Part shown: positions 6,842 to 57,920 of the stretch, piece by piece
Numbering within the stretch: the first letter of the stretch is position 1
How the letters are laid out: every line of letters begins with the position of its first letter
Origin: an uncultured archaeon
Lineage (GTDB): Archaea > Thermoplasmatota > Poseidoniia > MGIII > CAYLMJ01
Length of the DNA: 64,000 nucleotides
Reading direction: 5' to 3'
Assembly (NCBI GenBank): GCA_964384995.1
Contig: CAYLMJ010000001.1
Span: 100,408-164,407, forward strand
Notes under the pieces: model-generated
Databases searched by the model: none
Told to the model about the DNA's origin: nothing
Seen by the model: the letters and a program-made list of their open reading frames with translations, nothing else
Program-made: the position numbers and the translations under genes

Positions 6842-6886
6842 AGATATCACCGACTGTAAATCGTCACCTTTGCTATCCGGCGACAT

Positions 6887-23075: not shown

Positions 23076-23110
23076 ATTGAATTGGGTTGCCAACCTTGCG
23101 GGTGAATATC

Positions 23111-28387: not shown

Positions 28388-28529
28388 TACCCAGCTAGCT
28401 CCTTGAACCTGAAGATATCCTAGAATTACCAGGGACCTTGGGAGGTAAGGATATTATTCGGGCCCTGCCGAGGGCCTGGATGATGCCTATTTATACTATG
28501 TTCGGGTTGAATTGGCCTCGGGTGATAAC

Positions 28530-31500
28530 GTGGCCAGTCGCAGATATGCCATTTCCTTCAGCTTGCTCCTTCTGCTCTCTTCGCTGTTGCTTCCAGGCCC
28601 GTGGAACTCGCCTGCCCATGGCTCGATGACCGGGGATGAACCCCCGACCGACGGCGATTGGGTGGTGGAGCACAATTCAACGGTTCGCGACGAGAGCATT
28701 ACCCTCAACGGCAATCTGACGGTGACCAACAGCTCGGTCCTGGACCTGGCCAACGTGATCCTGCGCCTGAACTGCACCCTCCCGGACGAGTTCTCCATCA
28801 ACGTGGAGGCCGGTTCTAGCCTGATCGCCGACAACACCACCTTCACCCGCGGCGGCCAGCACAACTACAGCTTCACCTTCGCCGGCGGCTCGGCTGGGGC
28901 CCTCAACGACACGCTCATCGAGTATGCCGGGGCCTCGAGCAGGATGGGGCTGACGCTCCAGAGCGAAGCGGTGAGCCTGACCAACTCCACCATCCGCGAG
29001 AGCTACAACGGAGTGGTGGTGCAGAGCCCGGCCCGGATCGCCAGCAACACCATATACAACACCTCGGTGGGTCTGGCCCTGGCCAACAGCGACGCTGGCA
29101 ACGACGTGGAGGCCGACAACACCTTCGAGCATGAGGACCACGGCAACACCATCGCCAACATCCGGTCCTACCGGCCGGTCACCGTGGTCATCCAGGACCA
29201 GGACGGCCAGGGCCTCGAGGCGGCCCGGGTCTACCTCAACGACACCCTGGGCGGCAACTGGGTCGACTCCCTCACTCCGGCCGACGGCCGGATCGGACCC
29301 ATCTCCCAGGTCGTCTGGGAGGTCACCCCCGGCGGGGTCAACCAGAGCCTGGAGCCCTTCGACCTGATCGCCACCAAGCACGGGCGCAGCAACTCCACCC
29401 GGGTCACACCCTCCAACACCACGACCCTGACCCTGGAGCTCAAACTCCTGCCCGACCTGGCGGTGGAGGACTCCCAGATATTGTGGGGAGCCACGCCAGT
29501 TTCCTTGACAGTGGTGCCCTCGGGCCGGGACAACGACACCCAGTTCAAGTACCGGATCATGGATGACCCGTCCCAGTTTCCCTCGGGCTGGTACGAGCCC
29601 GGCTTCAACGATTCGGCCTGGAACGTCAGCGCCGCTCCGTTCGGTGACAAGGACCAGGCCGGGACCGATCTCAACACCATCTGGGATTCCGAGGGCGAGG
29701 ACCCCTACACCAAGGACCATCTCCTGCTCCGTCACCGGTTCACCCTGCCCGAGGGTGCCAGGGTCCTGGACTCGGCCCTCAACGTGGCCTTCAACAATTA
29801 CTGCACCCCCTACCTGAACGGGAACAAGATCTACGACGAAAGGGGCTCCAACACCCACAGCGCCTCCTACTGGAACGGGGACGGGGACGCCGATGTGGAC
29901 CCTGACCACTTCACGGCCGGAGAGAACGTCATGGCCATCTACGGCCGGGACTACGTGTACCAGAGCCATGGCCAGAACAGCCAGTGGCTGGACTTCCAGC
30001 TCACCGCCGAGTACTACATCCCCGGTCGCGGAGACCTGGTGGTGGACTACTCCACCCTCATCGTGACCACCGTGGAGAACCGGGGGGTCGCGGCCGCCCA
30101 GGGCGTCCAGGTCAACCTCTACAACGACTCGACCCTGATGGAGACCAAGACCGTGGACCTGGGCGTCGGCGAGCAGAAGAACGTCTTCTTCGACTGGACC
30201 CCGGGTCACAATGGCACCCAGGTCCTGACCGTGGAGGTGGACGAGAGCCAGGCCATCGAGGAGGAGAACGAGACCAACAACAATGCCTCGGCGGAGGTCT
30301 TCGTGGGCGGCTACGGCATCAACCTGACCACCGATGACAACCACACCGCCATCACCTACAACCTCTCCCACCAGTTCAACCTCACCGCCTTCAACTACGG
30401 CGACATCAACGACAACGTCACCCTGGCCCTGACCCCGATGAACGACGTTACCGGATGGCAGACCCATCTATCACCCCAGCTCCTGGAGATGGAGCCTCAG
30501 GAGAGGTTGAACACCTCCCTGTCCATCCAACCTGTACGCGGGGCGCCGGTGGGCAATTACTCTTTCATCATCGCGGCCAACTCCCAGTTCCAATCCACAG
30601 GTTACACCACCCTGGTCCCCTCCCATTCCGATTGGCGCTGGCTTGACACCGACAACCCTCCCGCAGGCTGGGAGGAATCAGATTACAACGATTCGGGATG
30701 GAGCGAGGCTCCCGCCCCCTTTGGTGCGGGTTCGAACTTCGAGGACGAGGCCACTGAATGGGGCGGCAACGGATGGAGTTCCGATGACGAGGCGGTCTTC
30801 AGGCTCAGGTTCGATCTGACCAGGCCCATCAAGGAAGCCGTGCTCAAGCTGGCTGTGGCCGACGGGGCCCGGGCCTATCTCAACGGGGTGCAGGTTGTGG
30901 ATGACCTACAGGGCGACAATAACGATGGTTCCAGAGGGGCATCCCACTGGGACTACATCACCGGTGAGAAGCCCTCGGGCCTGGCGGCGTTGGATCTCGG
31001 CCTCCTGAACATTGGTGAGAACGTGCTGGCCATCCGCGTCTTCGATACCGGCCGGGCCAACTTCTTCGACGCCGAGTTCGATGTGGCCTATCATAGCGAG
31101 AACACCCAGGAGCTGGTGGTGGAGATCCTGCCCACCCACGACTTCGATCTGGGCAGTTACACCGATGAGTTCGAGCATCCCACCAACACGACCCAGGTCT
31201 ACACCATCAATCTTCACAACTACGGTCACTTCAACGAGACCATCGAGGCCCAACTGCAGGTCAACGACCAGCAGGGCGACTGGACCCACAACCTCTCGGC
31301 CGACAACCTTACCCTGGAGCCCGGCACCGGCGGCAGTCTCACCCTGGAGGTCTTCGCCAACGAGAGCCTCACCCTGGAGGACTATCTTGATCTCACCTTC
31401 ACCTTCCAATCACAGGAGGCTCCCTGGGTCAACCACACCTACGATCTCTTCCTGTGGGCCGACCCGCCCCATTACGAGTTCGAGCTGACCGACCCATCCG

Positions 31501-34517: not shown

Positions 34518-37500
34518 ATGCGACGCGCTCTGAACCTGTTCCTCTGGGCCCTGCTGTTGCTCACCGTCGGTTGGATGCTCACAGCCCAACCTGGCCAGGC
34601 CATCTCGCTGGCCACCGAGGACATCCTCATCGATACTCCCAGCCTGAACGAGACCTCGCCCCATCTGGACGGCGAATGGCTGGTCTGGCAGGATGACAAC
34701 GGCACCGGCTTCGACAGTGCCAACCAGTTCCGCCTCTGGGCCAGGGACCAGGGGGCACGGGCCGCCGGCGACAGGCTGCTGGTCGACAACACCACCACCT
34801 ACAGCCCGGTCTACCTGGAGGACCCCTGGGTGGTCTGGGAATCCAAGAACCCCACCGGCGGTGACGTCCTTTACGCCCACAACCTGGACGACAACACCAC
34901 CACGACCCCCCTGTGGCCCTACGAGCCCACCAAGTACCATCTCTCGGGAACCTTCCTCTACTACTCGGTCTACAACGGCCAGACCATGAACACCACCTTC
35001 TGGGAGCATAACCTGGCCACCGGCTCGGAGAAGGAGCTCCACACCGAGGCCGGTTCCATCTACAGCTGGGACGTGGACCGCCCCAACCTGATCTTCGCCA
35101 ACAGCACCGACCCCAACGAGACCCTGTGGCATATCACCCTGGGCAGTCGGGCGACGCCCTCCGAGCTCAAGGTGGCCGACATGTTCTCCAGCCTCATCAT
35201 CGTGGGGGACTGGATCGCCTGGACCAACGACACCTCGGTCTTCCTGATGAGCCTGGACGGGGCGCTGTTCTACGAGCTCGAGACCTACATGGGCTACGTC
35301 AACGACACCTACGAGTATCCCTACGATCTCCACCTGGACGGCGACTGGCTGGTGTGGACCGTTTTCAGCTCTCCCGATGGTGACAACCATTACGCCTACG
35401 GCTATGCCCACCATATCCCCACCGAGACGACCATTCCCATCGTGTCCAAGTCCCGGAGTGAAACCGGCCAGACCGGCCTGACGGTGGACCAGGACCGCTT
35501 CGTCTGGCAGGACAGCCGCGGCGCCACCCACGACCTCTGGTGGCGGGAGGTGGCCAATCAGCCGCCCACGGCCATCATCGACTCCATCTCCCCGAACCCC
35601 GCCGAGCAGGGTACCACGGTCTTCTTCTACGGCAACGGCGACGATGCCGACGGGACCATCGCGGCCTACGAGTGGACCTCCAATCTTGTGGGCGGGACCC
35701 TGTCCACGGCCCAGAGCTTCAGCTCCTCCTCCCTGCCGCTGGGAACCCACTCCATCTCCCTGAGGGTCCAGGACAACGAGGGGGAGTGGTCCGAGGCGGT
35801 CACCGAGACCCTGTCCATCACCGCCGCAACCTCCAACGAGGCTCCCACGGCCTACATCAGTTCCATCTCGCCCAATCCGGCCAAGCCGGGACAGATGGTG
35901 AACTTCATCGGCGGTGGCAACGACCCCGACGGCTCCATCGTCTTCTACAGCTGGTGGTCGAGCCGGGATGGCGAGATATCCTTCGAGGCCGAGTTCAGCA
36001 CCGATTCGCTGAGCGAGGGCACCCATTACATCAGTTTTACCGTGGCCGACGATGACAATGCCTACTCCGATGCCGTTGACGCCACCCTGGTTGTGGGCAA
36101 CGCCACGGGCCCGGTGAAGCACATCGACTTCTCCCACCCCGAGGAGGACGGCGAGAAGGTGGAGGGGGACACCCCGGTGTACGTCTACCTGACCATGGAG
36201 GGGGAAGAGAAGCTCTACTACTCCCATCCCCACCGCATCCGACTCCTGCTGGAATCCCCGGCCCTGGACACCAAGACCCTCTTCGACACGGCCAAGAACG
36301 GCTCGGACGAGATCCACGGCGAGAGTATCTTTGCCGTCAACATCTCGGCCATGGACCTGGAGATGCTGAAAAGCTACCTGAAGGACTACGGCTCGGCCTC
36401 CTACTTCTTCCCTCTGGAGGGGACCCTCTTCACCGATGAGCTGCCCAACGGCAGGTACACCCTGCGGACCGAGATACTTGACAGCGAGGGCGAGGTCATC
36501 ATGTCGGCCGAGCGGACCATCGTGGTGGAGAACCCCCGCATCGAGCCGGCACCCGCGGTGGCCGGCGCCGCCGTGGGCGTGGTGGCCGGAGGGGCCGCCG
36601 GAGCGGCCCTGGGAGGCGCCGGGGCGGCCGCCGGAGGCGCGGCCGGAGGAGCCGGCGGTGGAGGGGTCCAGGCCGATGGCGTGGGCTCCAAACTGCGCCG
36701 CAAGAAGAAGCTCACAGGAGGCCTCTTCGGCGAGGGCTTCGCCATCCTCCTGGCCCTCATCGGCATGGTGCTGGCCTACGCCTACGCCAGCCTGGCCCAG
36801 CCCACCCTGGACCCTCTCTCCAACCTCGGCCAGTTCAACACGGTCCTGCTCTCGGACATCGGCGGCTTCCTGGCCGACCTGGGCCACATGGTCCTCTTCC
36901 TGGGCATGGTCATGGCCATCGTCATCATCTTCAGGGCCGGCGTGGACCACCTGGCGGCCCAGGCCCAGGGGGTCAAGTCGGTCTTCAAGCTCCAGGCCCC
37001 GGGAACGGCGGCGCTGGGACTGTCGACAGCCCTGTTCGGCATGCCCTTTGGCTATCCCGCCCAGTCGGTCCACGAGAAGAAGGCGGGCAACGAGCTGAGG
37101 GAGGCCCGCATCGCCATGTCCCAGATAATGGGCACCCTGGTCCTGGTGCTGCCCTTCTGGATCATCTGGCAGTTCGTGGAGGTGGCCCGGTTCATGGCCG
37201 AGATAGGCTTAACAGTGGTGCTGATGACCGCATTCTCCATCGCCATCCCCCTGAAGCACAGCGAGGGCCGCTCCATCTACCGGTGGAGCCGGGAGCTTTC
37301 GCTGGTCATGATGGTCATCCTGGTCTTCTTCTTCTACGGCTGGCAGCTGGACTTCCTGCCCACGGCCCTGCTGCCCCTGCTGGGCCTGGCCGGCATCGCC
37401 GCCATGCCCAACCTGCTCAAACCGGCGCCCAGGGGACCCTCACCCTACGACGACCTGGAGGACGAGGGACCCGGCGACCTGCCCGAGGCGCCAAGGGGCT

Positions 37501-37937
37501 GGGAGAAGGAGCCCGAGGGCGACGAGGCCTTCCGGCCCCCGGACAAGCCGAGGACCGGCTGGGGCGACACCGAGCCCGGAGCGCCAGGCGAGGCGCCGCC
37601 GGGAGATGGCTGGGGCGAGCCCCCCTCACCTGACACCGCCGATGTCGACGGGCCGCCCTCCGAGCCGTTGCCCGAGGCGCCGCCACTGCCCGACGAGCCC
37701 CTGCCAGCCCCCGCCCCCGTCGAGCCGCCCCTGGGCCCACCCGAGGTCGAGCCCGAGGTGAAACCGGATGTGGAGCGGCCGCCCGAGGCCGAACCGGAGA
37801 TAGAGCCCGAGGTCGAGCCCGAGCCGGACGAGGAACCGGAAGAGCCCAGAGAAAGAGAGGCCGCCGCCTGCATCAGCTGTGGGAAGGCCATCGACACCAA
37901 CTGGAAGATCTGCCCCTACTGCTCGACCAAGCAGTGA
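34518..37937 (+). CDS. Surface/membrane protein: beta-propeller repeats, two PKD-like domains, Ala/Gly-rich segment, degenerate M50(S2P)-like multi-TM domain, Pro/Glu linker, double Zn ribbon
   Basis: Signal peptide; repeats such as PHLDGEWLVWQD and LTVDQDRFVWQDSRG; PKD-like NQPPTAIIDSISPNPA and NEAPTAYISSISPNPA; about 7 TM helices; C-terminal CISCG..WKICPYC. Confidence 0.82.
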   Translation: MRRALNLFLWALLLLTVGWMLTAQPGQAISLATEDILIDTPSLNETSPHLDGEWLVWQDDNGTGFDSANQFRLWARDQGARAAGDRLLVDNTTTYSPVYLEDPWVVWESKNPTGGDVLYAHNLDDNTTTTPLWPYEPTKYHLSGTFLYYSVYNGQTMNTTFWEHNLATGSEKELHTEAGSIYSWDVDRPNLIFANSTDPNETLWHITLGSRATPSELKVADMFSSLIIVGDWIAWTNDTSVFLMSLDGALFYELETYMGYVNDTYEYPYDLHLDGDWLVWTVFSSPDGDNHYAYGYAHHIPTETTIPIVSKSRSETGQTGLTVDQDRFVWQDSRGATHDLWWREVANQPPTAIIDSISPNPAEQGTTVFFYGNGDDADGTIAAYEWTSNLVGGTLSTAQSFSSSSLPLGTHSISLRVQDNEGEWSEAVTETLSITAATSNEAPTAYISSISPNPAKPGQMVNFIGGGNDPDGSIVFYSWWSSRDGEISFEAEFSTDSLSEGTHYISFTVADDDNAYSDAVDATLVVGNATGPVKHIDFSHPEEDGEKVEGDTPVYVYLTMEGEEKLYYSHPHRIRLLLESPALDTKTLFDTAKNGSDEIHGESIFAVNISAMDLEMLKSYLKDYGSASYFFPLEGTLFTDELPNGRYTLRTEILDSEGEVIMSAERTIVVENPRIEPAPAVAGAAVGVVAGGAAGAALGGAGAAAGGAAGGAGGGGVQADGVGSKLRRKKKLTGGLFGEGFAILLALIGMVLAYAYASLAQPTLDPLSNLGQFNTVLLSDIGGFLADLGHMVLFLGMVMAIVIIFRAGVDHLAAQAQGVKSVFKLQAPGTAALGLSTALFGMPFGYPAQSVHEKKAGNELREARIAMSQIMGTLVLVLPFWIIWQFVEVARFMAEIGLTVVLMTAFSIAIPLKHSEGRSIYRWSRELSLVMMVILVFFFYGWQLDFLPTALLPLLGLAGIAAMPNLLKPAPRGPSPYDDLEDEGPGDLPEAPRGWEKEPEGDEAFRPPDKPRTGWGDTEPGAPGEAPPGDGWGEPPSPDTADVDGPPSEPLPEAPPLPDEPLPAPAPVEPPLGPPEVEPEVKPDVERPPEAEPEIEPEVEPEPDEEPEEPREREAAACISCGKAIDTNWKICPYCSTKQ

Positions 37938-41995: not shown

Positions 41996-42168
41996 AACAG
42001 CTCACTGGGGCCTTGTCAGCCAAGATTCGCTATTAAGATTTTCTACACAACCCGGGCGAACCGCCATCCTTATTTACCAGCAGTTCCAAGCAATTTGCTA
42101 TAGCTCGGCTTGCCCGAGGTGTGATCATGGTAGCTTCGATGGGTTCGGACGGACCCTTCGGTGACCCT

Positions 42169-45100
42169 GTGCCAAAGAGACTGGCAGGTTTCTCAGGCTC
42201 TGGGTCCCGGATGGCGTTAGCGCTGGCAATTTTGATGATCGCGGGGGGACTGGCCCCCCTGGCATCGGCCTGGCACCACGGTGGGTCGCCTCCCACCGAG
42301 TTCTGGTACCACGGCCGGGTCCTCGACGACGATACCGGAGGCGGACTGGCCAATGCCACCCTGACCCTCAGGGATCCCTGGGACCAGGTGCAGGCCACCT
42401 ACACCAGCGGCCCCGGAGGGAACTTCGGCGGCCTGCTGCCCATGGGCGATTACAGGGTCCGCATCGAGGTCCAGGGCTACTACGGTCTGGACAGCTGGAT
42501 GGGTGAATGGTGGTCCGACCAGCGCCACGAGGAGTACCGGCTCTTTCCCCTGCCCGCTCCCAACGCCACCCTCTCGGGCCACATCAACGATACCTCCGGC
42601 CTGCCCCTGGCCGGGGTCGAGGTGGTCCTGAACCAGAACAACCTCTGGCACCACCATGGCCAGCTCTACCACTCCCGGGTGGTGACCAACGCCACCGGCA
42701 ACTACAGCTTCTCCATGGCCGCCGGTGACTACAACCTGGAGGTGAGGCTCGCCGACCACTTCCACGAGGGCTGGGGTTTCACCGCCTTCAACGGCTCGGC
42801 CTACCACCAGAACTTCTCCCTGCAGAGCTACACCGAGACGGCCCAGGTCAAGGGATATCTGCGAGAGCCCGACAGCAGTCCGGCGCTCCCGGCCCAGATC
42901 GAGCTGCACCGGGAATGGGGCTATCACAACCAGAGCCATTCGGATTCGACAGGATACTACCAGATGATGGTGGCCCCTGGCAACTACACCGGCTACAACA
43001 CGTGGGGCGAGGGCTACCAGTGGCAGGACAACTGGTCCCTATCGCTCAATCTGACCGCAGGCTCCACCACCTGGCTCAACGTCACCCTCCAGCTGGCTCC
43101 CGACGAGATATTCGTGTCCGGGACGGTGTACGACGAGTTCAAGCAACCGGTGCCCAACGCCATCGTCAAGGTGGTCAAGCGTCAGACCTTCAATGGCCCC
43201 TCGCCCGGCCAGTACGTCAAGATGACGGCGGTGCACAACACCACCACCAGCCTCACCAACGGCAACTTCCTCTTGCACACCTACCGCTGGGGCGACCAGC
43301 ATCTGGAGGTCACGGCCCCGGGCTACTATTCCACCCAGGAGTGGTGGTACGACAGCGCCCGCAACAACTCCCTGCTGGAGCTCTTCATCGGACCGGCACC
43401 CAACGCTACCATCTCGGGCCGGGTGACCTATCCCAACGGCACCGGGGCGGCCAACCACTTCGTGGAATTTCAACAGATCCACGATGGGGGCGATCCCGAC
43501 TGGGTCTGGCTCAACAACGCCACCCACACCAACGCCACCGGCCACTACACCATGGACTACTGGGCCCTCCGCACCGAGGTCTGGGTCCACGACAACGAGA
43601 GCCATCGCTTCGGCCGGTACGAGTACTACCAGCATCCCCACACCTTCCCCACCGGCAGTTCCACCTACGACATCACTCTGGCCCACTCCAGCGAGAACAA
43701 CATCGTCAGGGGCTGGGTCAACCGCTCCAACGGCATGGGCCTGGCCAACATCTCGGTCTATGGCTCCAACTGGTGGGGCTTCGAGGAGACCACCACCAAC
43801 GCCACCGGCTACTACGAGCTGAACATGGTGTCCAGCCGGGAGAACTGGCTGGACGTCTGGTACCGCCCCCGCCCCTGGGAATACCCCAAGCTGGAGGAGG
43901 GCTACAACCAGTTCTACTTCGCCGATGGCGGTGAGACCATCGATTTCAACATCACCCTACTGCGACGCTCCGACGCGGTGGAGGACGCCACGGTCCACGG
44001 CCAGGTGCTGGCCCATCCCGGAGGCACGCCCCTGGGCAACGCCCAGGTCAGGGTCAACTCCCTCAACGAGGAGCATCGCTGGTGGTCCAACTGGACCCAT
44101 GCCAACGCCACGGGCCACTACCAGATGGACCTGCCCGGCGGCGAGTTCGAGATCTGGGCCGACAGCCCCGGCTACATGCCCAACCGGACCCGCTCCTACG
44201 TGGAATCGGGCTCCACGACCAGCGAGGACCTGACCCTGTCGCCCTACCCGCCCCTGGATGCCACCCTCAAGGGTTACGTCAAGGACGCGGTGGGCGACCC
44301 ACTGAAAGGCCTGCTCTTCTGGGGCCTGATGATGGACAAACGGCTGACCCATATGCGGGACCACGGCGGCTCCCTGGCGCCGATGTTCGACAACTTCGAG
44401 AACTACGCCTTCGAGTCGACCTTCTCCTCCAACGCCACCGGCTACTACGAGCTGGCGGTGCCGGCGGGACGCATCTACACCGGGGTCTTCGACCTGTCGG
44501 GAACGGCCGAGGGCTCCCAGACCAACTTCGTGGACATCACCGCCGGCGGGGTCATGTGGCTCAACTACACCCTGGCCAACTACACCGCCCCCTCCTACAC
44601 CATCTCCGGCCAGGTCCTGGACGAGTGGGGCGACCCCCTGGACTGGGACACCGAGGTGCTCCTGCTCAAACGGGGCGACTTCAGGGGCGACACAGGTCTT
44701 CACCTGGGCCACAACGGGACCTTCTCGTTCCCGGTCACTCCCGGCGAGTACGTGCTCCTGGTGGACCGCTTCGACCGGAACTGTCTCATTGAGAATGTCA
44801 CGATAACTACAAGTAACTACTACACCACATTCACCCTATACTACCCCAACACCACCCTGCTGGATCGGGGTGTGGACTTCCCGGACAGCGATGACTGGGA
44901 CAACGGGACCCTGTACGTCAACGTGACCACCTACGAGGACGTCATGCTGGCGCGGTTCATGGTGGACTACTACCTGGGCGACAGCGACGGGACCATCGAC
45001 CTCACCGAAGCCCTCCAGGTCCAGGACGACCTCTTCTGGGACCTCTACGGCTCCCAGCCCAGCCTGCTCCCTGGCGGCACCTCCCATAACGCCTTCAACC

Positions 45101-46383
45101 TGGATGGACGCCACTACCGTGTGGACACCGCCAGTTTCAGCCTGGCCCTGTCGGGAGGCCTGGGTCCGGTGGACTCCACCGACCCGCTGGTGGTTGCCGG
45201 GAGCCAGGACATCACATCCACGGCGCCGGTGCCAGTCAACGACCCCCATCGCTTCCGCATCTACGCCACCTACGACGAGAAGATCCTGGAGCAATCCTAC
45301 TGGGTGAGCGCGCCCAAGGGCTGGAAGTACCTGGGCGACAACGACCCGGATAACATCGCGGTATCGGGGACAGACCCGGTGCGGGTGGACCCCAAGGGCG
45401 ACCCAAAGCCCTGGGACGATATCTTCGAGGTCCTGGTGGACCTGGAGTTCGAGACCGACCTGCCCCGGCTGATGGTCGAGTGGGCGCCCATGTTCCCGGA
45501 CAACACCACCAACCTCTCGTTCAACGTGACCGCCCTGGGACTGCCGATGCAGGGAGCTCAGCTGACTGTCACTGGTTTCGCCAACGCCACGGTGATGGCC
45601 AGCCAGCTGTCCAACGCAACGGGTTCCGTGCTCACCGGCCCGATGCCGCCGGGTGACTACTGGGTGGAGGTGACCAAGGCCGATCACATCGCCGCCAAGG
45701 AGCTGTTGATGGTCCTGGAAAAGGGAGCCCAGCTGCCCCTGAACATCAGCTACCTGCCCCAGTTGCCCGACGATCGGACCGAGGTGACCATCACCCTGAG
45801 GAACGTGACCTCCCACGCCGTGGTGACGGGAGCCAAGGTGGAGGTGGTGCGCATCGTCGACTACGCCTCGATGTGGAACGGCACCACCGACGGCTTCGGA
45901 CAGGTCGCCGCGACCCTGCCGGCGGGAGAGTACCTCATCAACGCCACGGCTCTCGGCTACTCCAACACCTCCCGGGTCCTGCAGGTCCTGGAAGCCTTGA
46001 AGCGGTTGAACATCACCATCGACCCCCTCTACCCCACCATCGGCATGGGCATCAGTGTCCTGGTGGTGGATGACCTGGGCGCCCTGGTGGCCAACGCCAC
46101 GCTGATCATCACCCGGGTCAACAACGACTACGAGGTCTGGAATGGCACCACCGACGCCAACGGCACGGCCTTCCTGCCGGGGAGCCTGGGCCTGGAGGGT
46201 CAGTATCGCCTCACCGCCGAGTATCCGGGCTACGAGAACGACACCTACATGCTGACCATCCATCCCCACGACGAGCACAACCCCGAGCGGGAGGGTGACT
46301 CCTTCCTGCCGGGCCTGGGAGGCCTGATGGCCGCGCTGGCCATGATTGGGGTGGCCACGGTGATGGGCAGACGGAGACGGTAG
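42169..46383 (+). CDS. Surface glycoprotein with about 10 carboxypeptidase-regulatory-like (prealbumin-fold) repeats and PGF-CTERM-like C-terminus
   Basis: Repeats of the form G.V.D..G.PL.GA.V....TNATG.Y....L..G.Y.L.V.A.GY; C-terminus FLPGLGGLMAALAMIGVATVMGRRRR. Likely start GTG 42169 after GGTGA (track start 42121). Confidence 0.85.
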   Translation: MPKRLAGFSGSGSRMALALAILMIAGGLAPLASAWHHGGSPPTEFWYHGRVLDDDTGGGLANATLTLRDPWDQVQATYTSGPGGNFGGLLPMGDYRVRIEVQGYYGLDSWMGEWWSDQRHEEYRLFPLPAPNATLSGHINDTSGLPLAGVEVVLNQNNLWHHHGQLYHSRVVTNATGNYSFSMAAGDYNLEVRLADHFHEGWGFTAFNGSAYHQNFSLQSYTETAQVKGYLREPDSSPALPAQIELHREWGYHNQSHSDSTGYYQMMVAPGNYTGYNTWGEGYQWQDNWSLSLNLTAGSTTWLNVTLQLAPDEIFVSGTVYDEFKQPVPNAIVKVVKRQTFNGPSPGQYVKMTAVHNTTTSLTNGNFLLHTYRWGDQHLEVTAPGYYSTQEWWYDSARNNSLLELFIGPAPNATISGRVTYPNGTGAANHFVEFQQIHDGGDPDWVWLNNATHTNATGHYTMDYWALRTEVWVHDNESHRFGRYEYYQHPHTFPTGSSTYDITLAHSSENNIVRGWVNRSNGMGLANISVYGSNWWGFEETTTNATGYYELNMVSSRENWLDVWYRPRPWEYPKLEEGYNQFYFADGGETIDFNITLLRRSDAVEDATVHGQVLAHPGGTPLGNAQVRVNSLNEEHRWWSNWTHANATGHYQMDLPGGEFEIWADSPGYMPNRTRSYVESGSTTSEDLTLSPYPPLDATLKGYVKDAVGDPLKGLLFWGLMMDKRLTHMRDHGGSLAPMFDNFENYAFESTFSSNATGYYELAVPAGRIYTGVFDLSGTAEGSQTNFVDITAGGVMWLNYTLANYTAPSYTISGQVLDEWGDPLDWDTEVLLLKRGDFRGDTGLHLGHNGTFSFPVTPGEYVLLVDRFDRNCLIENVTITTSNYYTTFTLYYPNTTLLDRGVDFPDSDDWDNGTLYVNVTTYEDVMLARFMVDYYLGDSDGTIDLTEALQVQDDLFWDLYGSQPSLLPGGTSHNAFNLDGRHYRVDTASFSLALSGGLGPVDSTDPLVVAGSQDITSTAPVPVNDPHRFRIYATYDEKILEQSYWVSAPKGWKYLGDNDPDNIAVSGTDPVRVDPKGDPKPWDDIFEVLVDLEFETDLPRLMVEWAPMFPDNTTNLSFNVTALGLPMQGAQLTVTGFANATVMASQLSNATGSVLTGPMPPGDYWVEVTKADHIAAKELLMVLEKGAQLPLNISYLPQLPDDRTEVTITLRNVTSHAVVTGAKVEVVRIVDYASMWNGTTDGFGQVAATLPAGEYLINATALGYSNTSRVLQVLEALKRLNITIDPLYPTIGMGISVLVVDDLGALVANATLIITRVNNDYEVWNGTTDANGTAFLPGSLGLEGQYRLTAEYPGYENDTYMLTIHPHDEHNPEREGDSFLPGLGGLMAALAMIGVATVMGRRRR

Positions 46384-46522
46384 AGCTCGAGTCGTCGGTC
46401 AAGGAACAGAGGCTCCCGAGGGGCGATCCCCCGGGCAAAGGCCAGACCCGGTCCGCATCAGGCCCGCATCGGGTCCACACCAGCCAAATCATTAAGGTCC
46501 AAAACCCCATGTCCGCCCGCTC

Positions 46523-47767
46523 ATGGCTTTCCAACCGACCTTCAACCTTTGCCTGCTCCTGCTATTTGGCGGCGTGGTGGCCCTGGTGGCCCTCTGCACC
46601 GTCAGCTTCACCCCCGACCTGCAGCAGCAGACCTTCAGTCCCGGCGAGTGCGAGGGCTGTCACAACAGCTTCGTGCCCCTGGAGATGGAGGTGGAAGTGG
46701 AGCGGGTCAACGAGGACTGGCCGGCCTACACAGTCGCGGTGGAGGTGCGCAACCCCGACGAGCACGATGTTAGAGACCTCAGCCTCACCCTGCTAAATGA
46801 CATCGGCAAGAATGGGACGGGGCAGACCGACCTGAACGGCATCGTCCCGGTGCTGGGGACCGAGACCGAGACCGTCGAGGTGGAGACCGATGTGATCAGG
46901 CTGGACATCTGGCTCGACGGGGATGATGGCTCGACCGGGACCAACGACCTCGATATGGAGGTCACCGGCCCATCGGGTGGCTACTGGAGCTCTGCCGGCG
47001 CGGGACCGGACGAGGAGGTCCACATCCAGGCCGATGCCCTGGCGGAGGAGGGGCCCGGCACCTACACCATCGATATCGCCTGGTTCAGCGGCGACGGTCC
47101 GATACAGTACGATCTTCTGGTGGAATGGGAGTATGGCCAGGCGCCCCTTGAGAGGCAGGGGCGGAACCTCCATGAGGGACGCTCGCAGACCTTCAACTGG
47201 TACCTCAACATGACCCCCGAGCAGGTGGACAACCTCTCGTTCGAGGCCAACCTGGTGGCCCAGTACGACCACGATGACACCGGTCCTGACGAGCAGGCGT
47301 ACACCCTCCGGTACCGGGAGGGCACCCTTGTGACCCATGAACCCAGGGACTTTGGCAGGCTGGGACTGGGTCAGGCGCTGGGCATCACCATGCTGGTCCT
47401 GGTGGTTGTGAGCACGATCAGTGGGTTCTACGCCGCCTCACGCCTGCCGGTACCCGAATGGTTTGCAAATGCTCCCAGGAAACGGCGTTATCGAGGTCAC
47501 ACCATCGCCAGCCTGCTCCTGCCATTGCTGGCCCTGCCCCATGCCCTGGCATTGCAACTGGGCATCTACTCGGGCACTCCCAAGGGACTGCTCAGCGGCC
47601 TGCTCACAATGGTGGTCCTTGTCGTCCTATCGGTCATCACCCTGGACATGAAGCGGCTCTCCCGGCGCTGGGGCTTTGAGCAGTGGCAATGGGTCCACCG
47701 GGGCCTCATCGTGGTCTTCCTGCTCCTGCTGGCCAACCACATCCTGAAGATAGCCACCCATCTGTGA
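46523..47767 (+). CDS. Putative CxxCH (heme c) + PPC-like domain + ferric-reductase/cytochrome b-like TM domain fusion
   Basis: Signal/TM, then CEGCH at aa 43-47; PPC-like DLDMEVTGPSG..SSAGAGPDEEVHI...GTYTIDI; four C-terminal TMs with two H-x13-H pairs (GHTIASLLLPLLALPH, VHRGLIVVFLLLLANH). Confidence 0.7.
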   Translation: MAFQPTFNLCLLLLFGGVVALVALCTVSFTPDLQQQTFSPGECEGCHNSFVPLEMEVEVERVNEDWPAYTVAVEVRNPDEHDVRDLSLTLLNDIGKNGTGQTDLNGIVPVLGTETETVEVETDVIRLDIWLDGDDGSTGTNDLDMEVTGPSGGYWSSAGAGPDEEVHIQADALAEEGPGTYTIDIAWFSGDGPIQYDLLVEWEYGQAPLERQGRNLHEGRSQTFNWYLNMTPEQVDNLSFEANLVAQYDHDDTGPDEQAYTLRYREGTLVTHEPRDFGRLGLGQALGITMLVLVVVSTISGFYAASRLPVPEWFANAPRKRRYRGHTIASLLLPLLALPHALALQLGIYSGTPKGLLSGLLTMVVLVVLSVITLDMKRLSRRWGFEQWQWVHRGLIVVFLLLLANHILKIATHL

Positions 47768-47837: not shown

Positions 47838-48038
47838 TCAATCCTTCTTGCCCTTCTTGCCGTTCCCGTTCTGCATGCCCAGGGCCTTGATCAGGAACTC
47901 CTGCTCCCGGGTGCGGTGATAGCAGGTCTGGCAGTAGAAGACTTCCTCATTATTGCGGTCCTTAACCAGGTTCTTGGGGGTACCGCAGGAAACGCAAGTG
48001 TGCTGGACCAGCGTAGGCTCGGGTGTCGGTTCTGACAT
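47838..48038 (-). CDS. Small standalone Zn-finger protein
   Basis: MSEPTPEPTLVQHTCVSCG...FYCQTCYHR...; SD-like GAGGGAG upstream; basic C-terminus. Confidence 0.65.
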   Translation of the reverse strand: MSEPTPEPTLVQHTCVSCGTPKNLVKDRNNEEVFYCQTCYHRTREQEFLIKALGMQNGNGKKGKKD

Positions 48039-48182
48039 GGAAGCTCCCTCGATCGGAGGCAAAAGGCCCCCGAATCGATTAAAGGCTGTGGTGAGTTAGG
48101 TATTTACCAGTATTTACGTTCTACTGATGGTTCTTGGATATGGATGATGAACGCTGAACAAGGAGTGCAGAGGGACCCGAAC

Positions 48183-54375: not shown

Positions 54376-56715
54376 ATGAGTGCGCGGCCGCCACCACCGA
54401 CCCTGACACAGCTTGAGCCATTTTTTCCCCACTGGGAAAAGACCAAGGATCTCATTGACCAGTGCATCGACATCATGCTCAACCAGAGCGAGTCAGGGCA
54501 CCCTGGCGGCTCCCGCTCCAAGGTCCACGGCGCCATCGTCACCCTGCTCTCGGGGATCATGCGGTGGGACATCCGCGATCCAGGGAAACCCTTCGCCGAC
54601 CGCTTCCTGCTGGCCGCTGGCCACACCTGCCCCATGATCTACGGGGCCCTGGCGGTGTTCAACGAGGCCCTGCGCATCAAGCATCAACAGACCGGCGATG
54701 AGCGATACGTGGTGCCCAAGGCCGAGGAGCGCCAGCTGACCTGGGAGGACCTGCTGACCCTGCGTCACATCGGCGGCCTGTCGGGCCACGCCGAGATGAG
54801 CGGCAAGACCCTGCTGTTCAAGTTCAACACCGGACCCTCGGGTCATGGCTTCGCCTCGGCGGTGGGTCAGGCCCTGGCCCTGAAGATGGCGGGTCTGGAC
54901 GAGGTGCGGGTCTTTGGCATCGAGGGCGAGGGCGGTCTCACGGCCGGGGCGGTCCACGAGGCCAAGAACACGGCCTGGGGCCTGGGCCTGGACAACCTGC
55001 TCTTCTACATCGACTGGAACGACTTCGGCATCGACGACCGGGCCTACTCCGAGGTGGTCAGCGGCGAGCCCCGGGACTGGTTCGACCCCTACGGTTGGTA
55101 CACCTCGGGCACCATGGAGGGCTCCAACTGGCAATCGGTCACCCGCAGCTACCTCAACCTCTTCGCCCCCGACGCGCCCAGCGCCCCCAAGGTCTTCTGG
55201 TCCCGCAACCGCAAGGGGCGGGGCTACCACATCTTCGACCAGAAGTCCCACGGCGCGCCCCACAAGCACAACTCCGAGAACTTCTGGAAGGGGCGCAAGG
55301 ACTTCGAGGACACCTACGGGGTCGAGTTCGAGGACCATGGGGCCCCGGCGGCCTCCACCTACGAGGGCCAGCTGGCCCAGACCGAATCCTACCTGCGCAC
55401 CGTCATGGAGGTCCTGGCCGAGGACCAGGAGCTGGTGGACTACCTGGCCGACACCCTGGTGGCCCTGGGCGACGCGGTGCCCAACCAGATCGAAAGCTTC
55501 AGGCTGAGCGAGGGCAACCCCCTGGACGACCCAGCCATCACCGATTATGCCAACTATCCGGCCGACCTCTTCATGCCGGTGGGCTACCGGGCTCCCAACC
55601 GGGCGGGCCTGGCCCGCTGGGGGGCGTGGGTCAACAGCTACTGCGCCAACAAGTACGACCGGCCCCTCTTCATCGCCGCCGCCGCCGATGTGGCTGATTC
55701 CACCAACATCTCCGGTTTCGCCAAGGGCTTCGGCGATTTTGACGGCTGGGACTGGTACCACCGGGACTCCAATCCCACCGGCTGTCTGCTGCCCCAGCCC
55801 ATCACCGAGTTCGCCAACGCCAGCCTCATGGCCGGCCTGGCCTGCGTCAACATGTCGCCCAGCCCCGAGGAGAGTTTCCTGGGCTACCTGGGGGCCTGTT
55901 CCACCTACAGCTCCTTCTCCTATCTCAAGTACGGACCCCTGCGCCTGCTCTCCCAGATCGCCCAGGATTCCGAGCTCAAGCTGGGCCGGGTGCTGTGGAT
56001 CGCCAGCCACTCGGGTCCCGAGACCGCCGAGGACGGCCGGACCCACTTTGGAATCTTCGCCCCGGGGGTCACCTCCCTCTTCCCCAGGGGCCACATCATC
56101 AACCTCCATCCCTGGGAGCACAACGAGGTGCCGGTGGTGCTGGCCGCGGCCCTGGCCACCGAGGTCCCCCTCATCGCCATCCACCTGTCGCGACCCCCGT
56201 TCGAGATACCCGATCGCGAGGGCCTGGGCATGGACCCCCACTGGGAAGCGGCCAAGGGCGCCTACCTCATCCGGGATTTCGATCCCAAGCGACCCCGGGA
56301 GGGGACGGTCATCATCCGGGGCGCCAGCTCCACCAACAATCTGGTGTCGCTCCTGCCCCGCCTTGAGAAGGAGGGGCCCAACCTGAAGATCGTGTCGGCC
56401 ATCTCCTTCGAGCTCTTCCAGCTCCAGACCCCGGAGTATCGCCAGCGGGTCCTCTCGGACTCAGACCTGGCCGACTCCATGGTGATCACCAGCGGCTCCC
56501 TGGACAACATGGCCAACTGGATCGGGCACCCCCTGGTGCGCCAGTACTCCCTGAGCTCCGACTGGGACGACGGCTGGCGGAGCGGCGGCAAGGGCGACGA
56601 GATGGTGGCCGAGGCCCGCCTGGACCCCGATTCCATCTGGGAGGGCATCACCCGCTTTGCGGCGGAGAGGAAGGAGCGCATGGCCCGGCTCAGGGCCGCG
56701 GTACAAGAGGAATGA
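54376..56715 (+). CDS. tkt: Single-chain transketolase-family enzyme
   Basis: SGHPGGS; GHTCP; LSGHAE; GPSGHG; TPP-binding GEGG...WND; C-half ITEF, HSGPETAEDGRTH, IHLSRP. Confidence 0.85.
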   Translation: MSARPPPPTLTQLEPFFPHWEKTKDLIDQCIDIMLNQSESGHPGGSRSKVHGAIVTLLSGIMRWDIRDPGKPFADRFLLAAGHTCPMIYGALAVFNEALRIKHQQTGDERYVVPKAEERQLTWEDLLTLRHIGGLSGHAEMSGKTLLFKFNTGPSGHGFASAVGQALALKMAGLDEVRVFGIEGEGGLTAGAVHEAKNTAWGLGLDNLLFYIDWNDFGIDDRAYSEVVSGEPRDWFDPYGWYTSGTMEGSNWQSVTRSYLNLFAPDAPSAPKVFWSRNRKGRGYHIFDQKSHGAPHKHNSENFWKGRKDFEDTYGVEFEDHGAPAASTYEGQLAQTESYLRTVMEVLAEDQELVDYLADTLVALGDAVPNQIESFRLSEGNPLDDPAITDYANYPADLFMPVGYRAPNRAGLARWGAWVNSYCANKYDRPLFIAAAADVADSTNISGFAKGFGDFDGWDWYHRDSNPTGCLLPQPITEFANASLMAGLACVNMSPSPEESFLGYLGACSTYSSFSYLKYGPLRLLSQIAQDSELKLGRVLWIASHSGPETAEDGRTHFGIFAPGVTSLFPRGHIINLHPWEHNEVPVVLAAALATEVPLIAIHLSRPPFEIPDREGLGMDPHWEAAKGAYLIRDFDPKRPREGTVIIRGASSTNNLVSLLPRLEKEGPNLKIVSAISFELFQLQTPEYRQRVLSDSDLADSMVITSGSLDNMANWIGHPLVRQYSLSSDWDDGWRSGGKGDEMVAEARLDPDSIWEGITRFAAERKERMARLRAAVQEE

Positions 56716-57920
56716 ACATGGTACATCAACTTGCCAAGCGCATGGAGAAAGCGGACACCATCTCGGCCTTCACGGTTTCGGCCGAGGCCCGGGCCTTCGC
56801 GGCCCAGGGACGCAAGGTCTACCCCTTTCATGTGGGAGACCTGAACCTGCCCACGCCTTCCACGATCACCCAGGCCACCATCAAGGCCATGGTGGAGGAG
56901 CGCCGCACCGGCTACTGCCCCTCGGCGGGCATCCCCGAGCTGCGCACCGCCATTGCCGAGGACGTCAGCGCCTCCCACCATGTGGAGTATGCCATGGAGA
57001 ACGTGGTGGTGCAGACCGGGGGCAAACCGGTCATCGGTAAGTTCCTGATCACCCTGATGAACCCCGGCGACGGGGTCATCTACCCCGACCCGGGCTACCC
57101 CCTCTACATGTCCCTGGCCGAGTTCTACGGCGGGGTCACCTATCCCTACGGTTACATCGACACCCCCGAGGGTCTGATGATGGACTTTGAGGCCATCGAG
57201 GCGGCCTTCGCCAAGGGAGCCAAGATATTCGTCTACAACAACTACCACAACCCCACCAGCGCCGCCTCGCCCCCCGAGGAGATGGAGCGGCTGGCCGACC
57301 TGGTGCGGGAGCACGACGCCTGGGTGCTGGCTGATGAGGCCTACTTCGACATGCGCTACGAGGGCGAGGGACGCTCCATCGTGGAGCTGGAGGGCATGGC
57401 CGAGCGGACGGTCATCCTCTACACCTTCTCCAAGAAATACGCCATGACCGGCTGGCGGCTGGGGGCGGCCATCGGTCCCAAGGAGGTCTGCGCCGGCATC
57501 GCCAAGATGAACGTCAACGACGAGTCGTGCACCAACCACTTTGTCCAGTGGGGGGCCATCGCCGGCCTTCAGGGACCCCAGGATGAGGTGTGGGGCCTGC
57601 TCACGACCCTGCGGGAGCGCCGTGACGCCGCCGTGGCCCAGCTGAAGGGCATCGACGGCCTGAACATGCACATCCCCTCCTCGACCTTCTACCTCTGGCC
57701 TGATGTGTCGGGTCTGATGGAGCGCAAGGGCTACGATGACGTGGAGGCCTTCCGAAAGGGTGTCATGGAGGCTACCGGGGTCTCGTTCTGCTCCCGGGTC
57801 CAGTTCGGCCGCATCCAGCCCGGCGAGACCGGCCACTACATCAGGCTGGCCTACTCGGGCATCGACGTCCCGGCCATCAAGGAGGGCCTGGGCCTCTTTG
57901 CGGAATGGGCGGCGGAGTAG
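56712..57920 (+). CDS. PLP-dependent aminotransferase class I/II (aspartate aminotransferase-like)
   Basis: PDPGYP; NNYHNPT; ADEAY; TFSKKYAMTGWRLG. ATGA overlap with the transketolase stop. Confidence 0.93.
   Translation: MNMVHQLAKRMEKADTISAFTVSAEARAFAAQGRKVYPFHVGDLNLPTPSTITQATIKAMVEERRTGYCPSAGIPELRTAIAEDVSASHHVEYAMENVVVQTGGKPVIGKFLITLMNPGDGVIYPDPGYPLYMSLAEFYGGVTYPYGYIDTPEGLMMDFEAIEAAFAKGAKIFVYNNYHNPTSAASPPEEMERLADLVREHDAWVLADEAYFDMRYEGEGRSIVELEGMAERTVILYTFSKKYAMTGWRLGAAIGPKEVCAGIAKMNVNDESCTNHFVQWGAIAGLQGPQDEVWGLLTTLRERRDAAVAQLKGIDGLNMHIPSSTFYLWPDVSGLMERKGYDDVEAFRKGVMEATGVSFCSRVQFGRIQPGETGHYIRLAYSGIDVPAIKEGLGLFAEWAAE

Follow-up and report, generated by a model that had tools for sequence, protein, structure and literature searches.

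Can a single archaeal gene encode an entire electron path between the cytoplasmic side of the membrane and a heme held outside the cell? This question is raised by an open reading frame (ORF) at positions 46523-47767 on the plus strand of a 64,000-nucleotide stretch of contig CAYLMJ010000001.1, hereafter the window, which derives from an uncultured archaeon that groups with the Thermoplasmatota. According to the ORF list and a direct reading of the sequence, it starts with ATG and encodes 414 amino acids (aa) followed by a stop codon. An initial annotation had proposed that the protein joins a CxxCH motif, a PPC-like domain and a diheme cytochrome b module into a one-chain conduit. Our analysis makes it reasonably probable that the gene encodes a one-chain transmembrane electron carrier with three hemes (two b and one c), and highly probable that the di-heme b part, taken alone, is what it appears to be. 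The parts of the gene are given below, with helices and strands taken from an AlphaFold2 (AF2) model.

46523-47767, plus strand: whole gene, coding for an anchor or signal at the N-terminus, then CxxCH, an Ig-like sandwich into which a PPC-like domain is inserted, and a putative four-helix di-heme b domain
46541-46606, plus strand: N-terminal hydrophobic helix, aa 7-28 (AF2 helix), a predicted membrane anchor or Sec signal that would place CxxCH outside
46649-46663, plus strand: CEGCH, aa 43-47 (C43, C46, H47), a predicted covalent heme c attachment site with H47 as proximal ligand; short model helix at aa 42-46
46682-46813, plus strand: first half of the Ig-like sandwich, aa 54-97, with strands 54-61, 68-76 and 82-90; N77 and H81 (H81 codon 46763-46765) lie in the hairpin between strands 68-76 and 82-90
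46814-47137, plus strand: PPC-like beta jelly-roll insert, about aa 98-205, Asp-rich (DIWLDGDDGSTGTNDLDMEV); approximate boundaries, from the secondary structure of the model
47138-47347, plus strand: second half of the Ig-like sandwich, aa 206-275; its last hairpin contains H250 (codon 47270-47272), a candidate distal heme c ligand
47351-47761, plus strand: putative four-helix di-heme b domain, aa 277-413, with helices 277-305, 319-346, 353-383 and 385-413
47498-47500, 47540-47542, 47696-47698 and 47738-47740, plus strand: codons of the membrane His H326, H340, H392 and H406, respectively

CEGCH begins 15 residues past the N-terminal hydrophobic helix and is separated from the four-helix bundle by an acidic, beta-rich region of ~225 aa. 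H326 and H340 are located on the second helix of the bundle and H392 and H406 on the fourth, both pairs being spaced i/i+14 and the latter lying in the sequence context WQWVH...ANH. The positions that the initial annotation had given for CEGCH, soon after a signal or transmembrane segment, are exact in the sequence, and its four transmembrane segments with two i/i+14 His pairs, including W..VH, are seen in both the AF2 helices and the sequence. Loops rich in Lys and Arg follow the first and third bundle helices (aa 306-325 and 375-390; RKRRYRG and KRLSRRWG), an arrangement that would put the ectodomain outside and give each His pair a first member on the cytoplasmic side and a second one close to the outer face. 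By the positive-inside rule, CxxCH is thus predicted to be extracytoplasmic, as attachment of a c-type heme requires. Lys or Arg residues also precede the N-terminal helix in other family members, e.g. in the one from locus L025. Two ORFs of at least 100 aa in the window contain CxxCH, and the one described here is the only credible one; the other (56657-57040) runs out of frame over the end of a transketolase-like gene (54376-56715) and the start of an aminotransferase gene (56712-57920).

How far are these features conserved? A word-index search returned three close homologs of the same length (77, 65 and 61% identity) on syntenic marine contigs and recovered no wider family beyond them. An exhaustive search, in which a profile made from four sequences was scored against 1.84 billion representatives, gave 82 representative clusters at E<1e-3, 39 of these at <1e-10. 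About 55 clusters are full length (370-520 aa) and have their parts in the same order as the window protein, at 17-31% identity to it outside its own clade. All four representatives with a named source are from Thermoplasmatota/Thermoplasmata metagenome-assembled genomes (MAGs), and two of them are titled ‘ferric reductase-like transmembrane domain-containing protein’. The GTDB species genomes, searched with alignment A1, yielded no relative.

Counts of motifs and His refer to an alignment of 56 rows and percentages per residue to a local MAFFT alignment of 58 sequences. The membrane His are nearly invariant (H326 and H340 in 56/56 members, H392 in 52/56 and H406 in 54/56) and always spaced i/i+14. 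The N-terminal motif is CxxCH in 42 of the 56 members and CxxHH in six, and eight have neither. Retention is 84% for C43, 74% for C46, 93% for H47, 84% for N77, 71% for H81 and 81% for H250, which makes H47 the best-conserved residue of the motif, and in many members the cysteines of CxxCH are the sole two Cys of the whole protein. Conservation of CxxCH and the four His, to which the initial annotation had pointed as the feature to look for in homologs, thus extends down to 17-25% identity. A His near column 250 is found in 43 of 48 Cys-bearing members and in 2 of 8 Cys-less ones, and a His near column 81 in 40 of 48 and 1 of 8, respectively. The loss of both together with the cysteines suggests one functional site made up of the N-terminal motif and one end of the sandwich.

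Several variants of the motif and of the architecture occur in the family. The second Cys is replaced by His (CxxHH) in P0037, P0047, P0056, P0060, P0061 and P0069; such a motif implies at most one thioether bond, via the first Cys, which is believed to be unusual. CX4CH variants are CSRGDCH in the family member L228 2039-3235 and, beyond the family, CSGTGCH in the gene L026 927-1985 of Bathyarchaeia. Of the eight members that lack both Cys, most also lack H81 and H250. A long form (P0051, of 1374 aa, and its cluster members P0086 and P0087; 1374-1383 aa) has three CARDB domains, extra CxxC motifs and CESCH at aa 983, followed by the same four-helix di-heme domain at the C-terminus.

The membrane domain can be placed among known cytochromes, if only at a distance. 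In Pfam scans, the whole window protein matched Ni_hydr_CYTB (6.9e-5), Ferric_reduct (1.2e-3), PPC (0.028) and DUF4405 (0.45), all below threshold; these matches show the recognition by the initial annotation to be sound but, taken alone, prove nothing. When the membrane domain was isolated, the match to Ferric_reduct (PF01794) improved to E 3e-5 over profile positions 8-120 of 121, with the score rising from 19.4 bits (whole protein) to 24.5 bits, still below the 28-bit gathering threshold; the Pfam profile itself covers the four-helix core only. The isolated membrane domains of 21 members matched Ferric_reduct in 11 cases (E<0.01, best 6.5e-7), DUF4405 in six and Ni_hydr_CYTB in three. A profile search of the PDB with the membrane domain gave weak matches to cytochrome b6 and spurious ones to LeuT only, and Foldseek with the full-length model returned beta-domain matches only and was uninformative on the bundle. 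On these profile comparisons, the membrane domain is best classed as distantly related to the ferric reductase domain (FRD) and 2-heme cytochromes b, not as a curated member. The defining feature of the FRD is a set of four canonical His, two on each of two helices with one helix between them, which hold one heme on the cytoplasmic side and one on the surface side, as with H101/H115 and H209/H222 of NOX2, while in YedZ and STEAP the first His is replaced by Arg (PMC3591440). As the family keeps all four, two b hemes are expected. The initial annotation had likened the His spacing to ferric reductase, NOX and MsrQ; the Pfam matches support the distant FRD relationship, but an MsrQ-type function does not hold, given that all four His are present and that no MsrP-like gene occurs in the neighbourhood of the window gene or at syntenic loci.

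For the ectodomain, a first AF2 model from four sequences had a poor membrane domain (pLDDT, the per-residue confidence measure, 64) and was replaced by a run with the 56-sequence alignment, which reached a mean pLDDT of 86 (membrane helices ~85-96, most of the ectodomain, including the PPC-like insert, >90, and aa 29-40 and 268-275 alone <50). In this model, strands 54-90 and 210-265 flank the insert and form an Ig-like sandwich. The insert itself (aa ~98-205) matched, in Foldseek searches against the PDB, the C-terminal jelly-roll of Tk-SP (3afg_A; E 9.1e-7, 117 columns, probability 1.0), the collagen-binding domain of ColG (1nqj_B; target TM score 0.65, root-mean-square deviation 2.2 Å) and the Kex2 P-domain, all of which are PPC-type folds. 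Pfam PPC (PF04151) was matched below threshold (aa 117-183, 15.7 bits vs 25.9, E 0.028). A PPC-like domain inserted in an Ig-like domain, as the initial annotation had it, is therefore supported by model and fold search, while its label of a substrate-binding module is a conjecture; the domain may serve in binding, spacing or Ca-dependent stability.

Does the CxxCH motif carry heme? The best clue comes from a gene found next to family members in other lineages. In a Thermoplasmatota MAG (GCA_048569615.1, locus L020), a 134-aa PF01578 gene begins 2 bp past family member P0022, and its product contains IHPP, then WAQIAWGSYWSWDPKE, then a C-terminal LHG. A word-index search with this mini heme-handling protein (mini-HHP) gave 154 clusters at E<=1e-3, the best 120 of which are 100-148 aa long, mostly 122-140; the clusters are all PF01578, and the few named ones are from Thermoplasmatota and Bathyarchaeia. 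When aligned, they share an invariant WAQxxWGxxWxWDPKE motif, and H13 and H131 are their only invariant His. Judged by the positions of loops rich in Lys and Arg, both His and the W-rich motif would face outward. The mini-HHP profile matched CcmF (6zmq, 1e-11), CcmC (7f02, 2e-8) and CcsBA (7s9y, 3e-7) in the PDB, and the His of the HVP motif in CcmC 7f02 aligns with the IHPP of mini-HHP. With CcmC, CcsA and CcmF (PF01578) it thus shares a WWD motif flanked by two His predicted to face outward, but it differs from them in having only 122-140 aa, four helices and no conserved transmembrane His; the membrane His of the CcsBA channel are absent from it. In sequence terms, mini-HHP corresponds to the bare WWD core of a heme-handling protein with two putatively outward His. 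No CcsB, CcmE or CcmABD genes were noted next to mini-HHP in the loci examined.

We examined 12 distinct archaeal mini-HHP loci, and in 11 of these a gene for an Ig-like sandwich with an N-terminal CxxCH (or CX4CH) lies directly upstream; the only one without such a neighbour, L030, is a partial match. In five (L020, L025, L140, L227 and L228) the upstream gene is a member of the window family, co-directional and 1-10 bp away, while in six from Bathyarchaeia (L021/22, L023/24, L026, L027, L028 and L029) it is an unfused CxxCH sandwich gene, often with a 4-bp overlap. L020 and L025 are syntenic with each other, and the family member at L140 belongs to a different subclade, nearest to P0045 and P0078. 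L227 has a second CxxCH surface protein within the cluster, and the family member at L228 combines the CSRGDCH motif with a PKD insert. The genes are located as follows.

L020 11304-11708; L025 4998-5387; L140 483-875; L227 4001-4402; L228 3242-3634: mini-HHP genes beside members of the window family
L021 6001-6402; L023 6001-6372; L026 1982-2377; L027 4974-5384; L028 2027-2425; L029 4995-5390: mini-HHP genes of Bathyarchaeia
L021 4958-6004; L023 5018-5929; L026 927-1985; L027 3601-4980; L028 1146-2006; L029 4192-4998: unfused CxxCH proteins of Bathyarchaeia

The proteins from Bathyarchaeia, which match no Pfam family, begin with a signal peptide and NPCxxCH (CX4CH in L026), continue with a single Ig-like sandwich of ~110 aa and a linker rich in Pro and Thr, and end in a C-terminal anchor. 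Invariant residues of this module include C32, C35, H36, N74 and H141. The profile of the window family aligns with it in two segments, one on either side of the point where the PPC insert would lie. N77 in the window protein corresponds to the invariant N74, and the H250 region aligns with that of H141, the only invariant His besides H36; the two His coincide in one alignment and are two residues apart in another. These proteins look like surface-tethered mono-heme c-type cytochromes homologous to the sandwich of the window protein. H250 is the most likely candidate for the distal heme c ligand, with H81 as the alternative, since both its joint loss with the cysteines and the homology with the module from Bathyarchaeia favour it. 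It lies in the hairpin between the last two strands of the sandwich, so that a heme held by H250 would sit at the end of the sandwich that comprises the 77-81 and 250-254 hairpins and the beginning of strand A.

The translational coupling of a heme-handling gene, in two phyla, to genes for proteins that have nothing in common but an Ig-like sandwich with CxxCH at its N-terminus would be hard to explain unless the motif received heme, which it probably does. In these related lineages, covalent heme is probably installed by a dedicated protein of 122-140 aa encoded directly downstream, and mini-HHP is a candidate for a minimal cytochrome c maturation factor of Archaea that has so far gone undescribed. 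According to reviews of archaeal c-type cytochromes, Thermoplasmata-type archaea have almost none, and the Ccm pathway is the only one reported for Archaea (PMC4429474); a study of archaeal maturation from 2022 describes only a streamlined Ccm pathway. Our literature searches found no description of this family, of its domain combination or of mini-HHP, and the pair of mini-HHP and cytochrome is more novel than the window gene itself. A wider scenario, which we put forward tentatively and with slightly less than even confidence, is that Thermoplasmatota and Bathyarchaeia share a previously unrecognised minimal WWD maturation factor of ~130 aa, with four helices and no more than two outward-facing His, for new Ig-sandwich mono-heme c cytochromes, which in Thermoplasmatota became fused to an FRD-type di-heme b bundle to give a one-chain three-heme wire, the window gene being a marine fused member.

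The architecture, the conservation of all ligand residues, the FRD relationship and the mini-HHP linkage in relatives are observed, whereas actual heme binding, the distances between hemes, the donor, the acceptor and the direction in which electrons move are inferences. H326 and H392 would ligate one heme b near the cytoplasm and H340 and H406 a second one near the outer face, while CEGCH would carry a covalent heme c with H47 as proximal and H250 (or H81) as distal ligand. No dehydrogenase (NAD(P)H/FAD) domain is fused to the window protein, and the donor on the cytoplasmic side might be a membrane quinol or a soluble flavin reductase or ferredoxin. Electrons would pass from this donor to the heme b at H326/H392, then to that at H340/H406 and on to heme c, which, being exposed, could reduce an extracytoplasmic acceptor, be it an oxidant, dissolved or mineral, or an enzyme that acts as partner. 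The two low-confidence tethers (aa 29-40 and 268-275) make a mobile cytochrome domain plausible, in which the ectodomain may swing on these linkers and dock against the outer face of the bundle. At the level of the family, this interpretation of the cofactors is well supported. The transmembrane redox link of the initial annotation thus stands as regards the cofactors (His, FRD, CxxCH and mini-HHP linkage), whereas the acceptors it had suggested, metals and surface proteins kept in redox repair, found no support. Of the refuting outcomes that the initial annotation had listed, loss of the motif, lack of a maturation system and a disulfide are answered by the conserved CxxCH, the putative maturation factor linked to it in relatives and the CxxHH variant, respectively.

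Several observations weigh against the three-heme carrier. The window protein has no match above threshold in Pfam or NCBIfam (in the latter, no family at all), and eight of the 56 members lack the cysteines, so that a c heme would be dispensable for at least some functions of the family. A count of strand directions allows the CxxCH end of the sandwich to be distal to the membrane; whether the heme end would face the membrane hinges on residues 205-220 making a full traverse of the sandwich, which is the weakest link of the conduit model. No conserved redox partner was found in the synteny block of the window and its syntenic relatives. The absence of reads of the gene from four metatranscriptomes of the same studies also belongs here but is uninformative. 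Lastly, the initial annotation had noted that heme c maturation genes are missing from the window, and this is correct: tblastn with mini-HHP and a WWD-domain profile over all six-frame ORFs found no PF01578 or Ccm-like gene in the 64 kb, nor did one turn up on the contigs of close homologs (up to 43 kb; L001-L007) or next to the family members at L017 and L018. The same profile did recognise bacterial CcsA genes at other loci, as well as CcmC and CcmF in the PDB. The evidence for a maturation system is therefore divided, with a mini-HHP linked to the gene in five other lineages of the family and none in the window or the contigs of its close relatives.

The maturation gene may sit elsewhere in the genome of the window organism; in the lineages of L017 and L018 it would have to do so, provided that CxxCH is in use there. 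A GC-rich DNA pattern for the WWD motif, run against a metagenome collection, gave among the matches listed mostly bacterial contigs and none from the samples of this organism; it did yield the pair of family member and mini-HHP at L140. A pattern of WWD plus His, run against a genome collection, was not specific for the mini-form, as bacterial CcsA has the same spacing. In the source metagenomes, the L140 gene found only matches of 35-50 nt to unrelated CcsA-like genes.

Other explanations have to be weighed against the outward three-heme carrier. The same cofactors might serve an inward flow, from an external donor such as reduced humics, Fe(II) or a partner oxidoreductase to heme c, the b hemes and finally the quinone pool or a cytoplasmic acceptor. 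The sequence fixes no direction, no NAD(P)H/FAD domain is fused, and the multicopper oxidase gene 348 bp downstream of the L017 member might encode the acceptor or part of an oxidising module. However, characterised FRD proteins (NOX, FRE, STEAP and MsrQ) move electrons outward (PMC3591440), and flavin reductase and nitroreductase genes lie upstream of the L020 member, though not in the syntenic L025; we therefore hold inward flow to be unlikely. We give still less credence to a Zn, Cu or Fe site formed by C43, C46 and H47 with H81 or H250, or to a CxxC redox disulfide, served in either case by the di-heme b module. A cluster of Cys and His at one end of a beta-sandwich is compatible with such a site as well, the six CxxHH members retain three potential metal ligands, and the window has no maturation gene. 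Yet the repeated linkage of CxxCH and WWD genes in two archaeal phyla would have no rationale for Zn or Cu, which favours covalent c-type heme over Zn or a disulfide; H47 after the second Cys is the best-kept residue, as expected for an axial heme ligand; and CX4CH, found in L026 and L228, is a known variation of the heme c motif. A disulfide switch is excluded by the CxxHH variants, which leave no room for an obligatory CxxC disulfide.

The linkage also invites the idea that the family protein is itself a maturation component, a CcsB-like partner of mini-HHP in which the membrane His bind heme in transit or reduce it for attachment. It is true that mini-HHP is devoid of the transmembrane His of the CcsBA channel and that the family member would supply four together with a large ectodomain, loosely like CcsB. 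Nevertheless, we consider this very improbable, given that the partner in Bathyarchaeia has a C-terminal anchor with no His-bearing helices and still carries CxxCH, which is substrate-like and not channel-like, that the membrane domain resembles electron-transfer bundles of the FRD/cytochrome b type by profile, and that the family gene occurs without an adjacent heme-handling gene in the window lineage and in two others. The last candidate, in which the motifs are fortuitous and an ordinary anchor holds a surface or adhesion protein in the membrane, could draw on the very large surface proteins nearby and on the failure of any curated family to match above threshold, but it has next to no probability left: four His and CxxCH are kept down to 17-25% identity across >50 clusters, FRD profile matches occur family-wide, and chance is effectively refuted by these conservation data.

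How does the putative three-heme carrier compare with known systems? With FRD proteins (NOX/FRE, STEAP and MsrQ/YedZ; PF01794) the window protein shares two His on each of two non-adjacent helices, predicted to hold two stacked b hemes, a nearly full-length match to the Ferric_reduct profile and the complete set of four His, as in NOX and the bacterial ‘long forms’. The membrane domain of NOX, STEAP and MsrQ has six helices, whereas the window protein has four contiguous ones and a separate N-terminal anchor. Its family also differs in His spacing (14/14 vs 14/13 in NOX2), in the fused extracytoplasmic module for a c heme and in the lack of a FAD/NADPH domain. A survey of FRD proteins from 2013 found few archaeal members; the fused modules it lists include Fer2, Rieske and DOMON, with no mention of a fusion to cytochrome c (PMC3591440). 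DOMON-cytochrome b561 proteins (CYBDOM) and the cytochrome domains of cellobiose dehydrogenase are similar in that an outward beta-sandwich heme domain is in-chain with, or tethered to, the redox module that feeds it; the window sandwich, however, is Ig-like with an N-terminal CxxCH and gives no DOMON signal in Pfam. The sandwiches of CYBDOM and cellobiose dehydrogenase, which have DOMON/EB_dh folds, bind heme b non-covalently.

In layout, both the ectodomain of the family and the unfused proteins from Bathyarchaeia resemble cytochrome f, a c-type cytochrome built on a beta-sandwich, with CxxCH near the mature N-terminus, a small inserted domain and an anchor after the sandwich. Neither the Pfam scan nor Foldseek against the PDB gave a match to cytochrome f, whose sixth ligand is the N-terminal amino group as opposed to a candidate His here (H250, or H141 in Bathyarchaeia), and the likeness is probably convergent. 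Cytochrome b561/Ni_hydr_CYTB, DUF4405 and cytochrome b/b6 belong to the same class of di-heme four-helix proteins and gave weak profile matches, and helices B and D of cytochrome b carry i/i+14 His pairs on alternate helices like the window bundle. These matches are, however, partial or sub-threshold, the distribution of His in Ni_hydr_CYTB differs from that of the window family, and no Rieske or bc1 partners were found near the gene in the window or syntenic loci. Conduits of the MtrCAB type are multi-heme c-type cytochromes with or without a porin partner, in contrast to the single CxxCH of the window protein, beside which the 64 kb contain no other credible CxxCH ORF. The family can thus be regarded as a putative distant archaeal four-helix branch of the FRD/2-heme cytochrome b class combined with an undescribed Ig-sandwich module that appears to hold one c heme.

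If this reading is true, the fusion of CxxCH and FRD would open to these heterotrophs, which are abundant and uncultured, a hitherto unrecognised way of moving electrons to or from the cell surface, where metals, humics, oxygen species or surface enzymes are possible targets. A compact three-heme transmembrane wire encoded by one gene would also be of interest for bioelectrochemistry. Should mini-HHP be the attachment factor, it would be by far the smallest known component of cytochrome c maturation and could serve as a minimal model of heme trafficking and as a tool for heterologous production of c-type cytochromes.

Genes around family members might hint at redox partners in some lineages. 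At L017, a 440-aa multicopper oxidase (Cu-oxidase_3, Cu-oxidase, Cu-oxidase_2; 11812-13134) is encoded co-directionally, 348 bp downstream of P0053, and is a possible extracytoplasmic partner of the family member. Directly upstream of P0022 at L020 are genes for a flavin reductase (Flavin_Reduct, PF01613; 8813-9343, minus strand) and a nitroreductase (9396-9977, plus strand). A flavin reductase beside an FRD gene recalls the pairing of Fre and MsrQ, but as both genes are missing from the syntenic L025, they give a hint of a donor only. About 5.8 kb downstream of the same family member, L020 17067-21156 encodes a 1363-aa protein with two DOMON domains and a cytochrome b561; this is a second one-chain design, with an outer heme domain joined to a di-heme b module, carried by that Thermoplasmatota genome.

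In the window itself, the gene lies in a conserved block that runs from a geranylgeranyl reductase gene (followed in syntenic relatives by a ferredoxin gene) over a 1400-aa CarboxypepD_reg surface protein to the family member, and beyond it to a zinc-ribbon gene on the opposite strand, a CDF transporter (in the closest relatives) and an ABC/FtsX pair. The zinc-ribbon ORF (47838-48062, minus strand) has CxxC...CxxC, is 74 aa long by the ORF list (66-68 aa as called in relatives) and convergent with the family gene, and keeps its position in all syntenic relatives (L001-L006 and L105-L107). Relatives carry extra genes, with a Macro-domain gene in all six relative loci and AAA_14 in three of these: at L001 7937-9815 and L004 9371-9970, a Macro-domain gene (in L001-L003 along with an AAA_14/DUF4143 ATPase) lies between the surface protein and the family member, where the window has only a 139-bp spacer (46384-46522), which points to a small indel of accessory genes. 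Scans of the window for tRNA genes and Rfam families returned nothing. Most of its first 46 kb is filled by seven very large ORFs (1139-1950 aa); domains are given for the two that were scanned.

1679-6886, minus strand: very large ORF
8244-13916, 17534-23014, 23087-28387 and 28512-34364, plus strand: very large ORFs
34518-37937, plus strand: very large ORF with PKD domains in Pfam
42121-46383, plus strand: very large ORF with ten CarboxypepD_reg repeats in Pfam

The large ORF just upstream of the family gene ends in ...LPGLGGLMAALAMIGVATVMGRRRR, which we take to resemble an archaeal sorting signal of the PGF-CTERM type.

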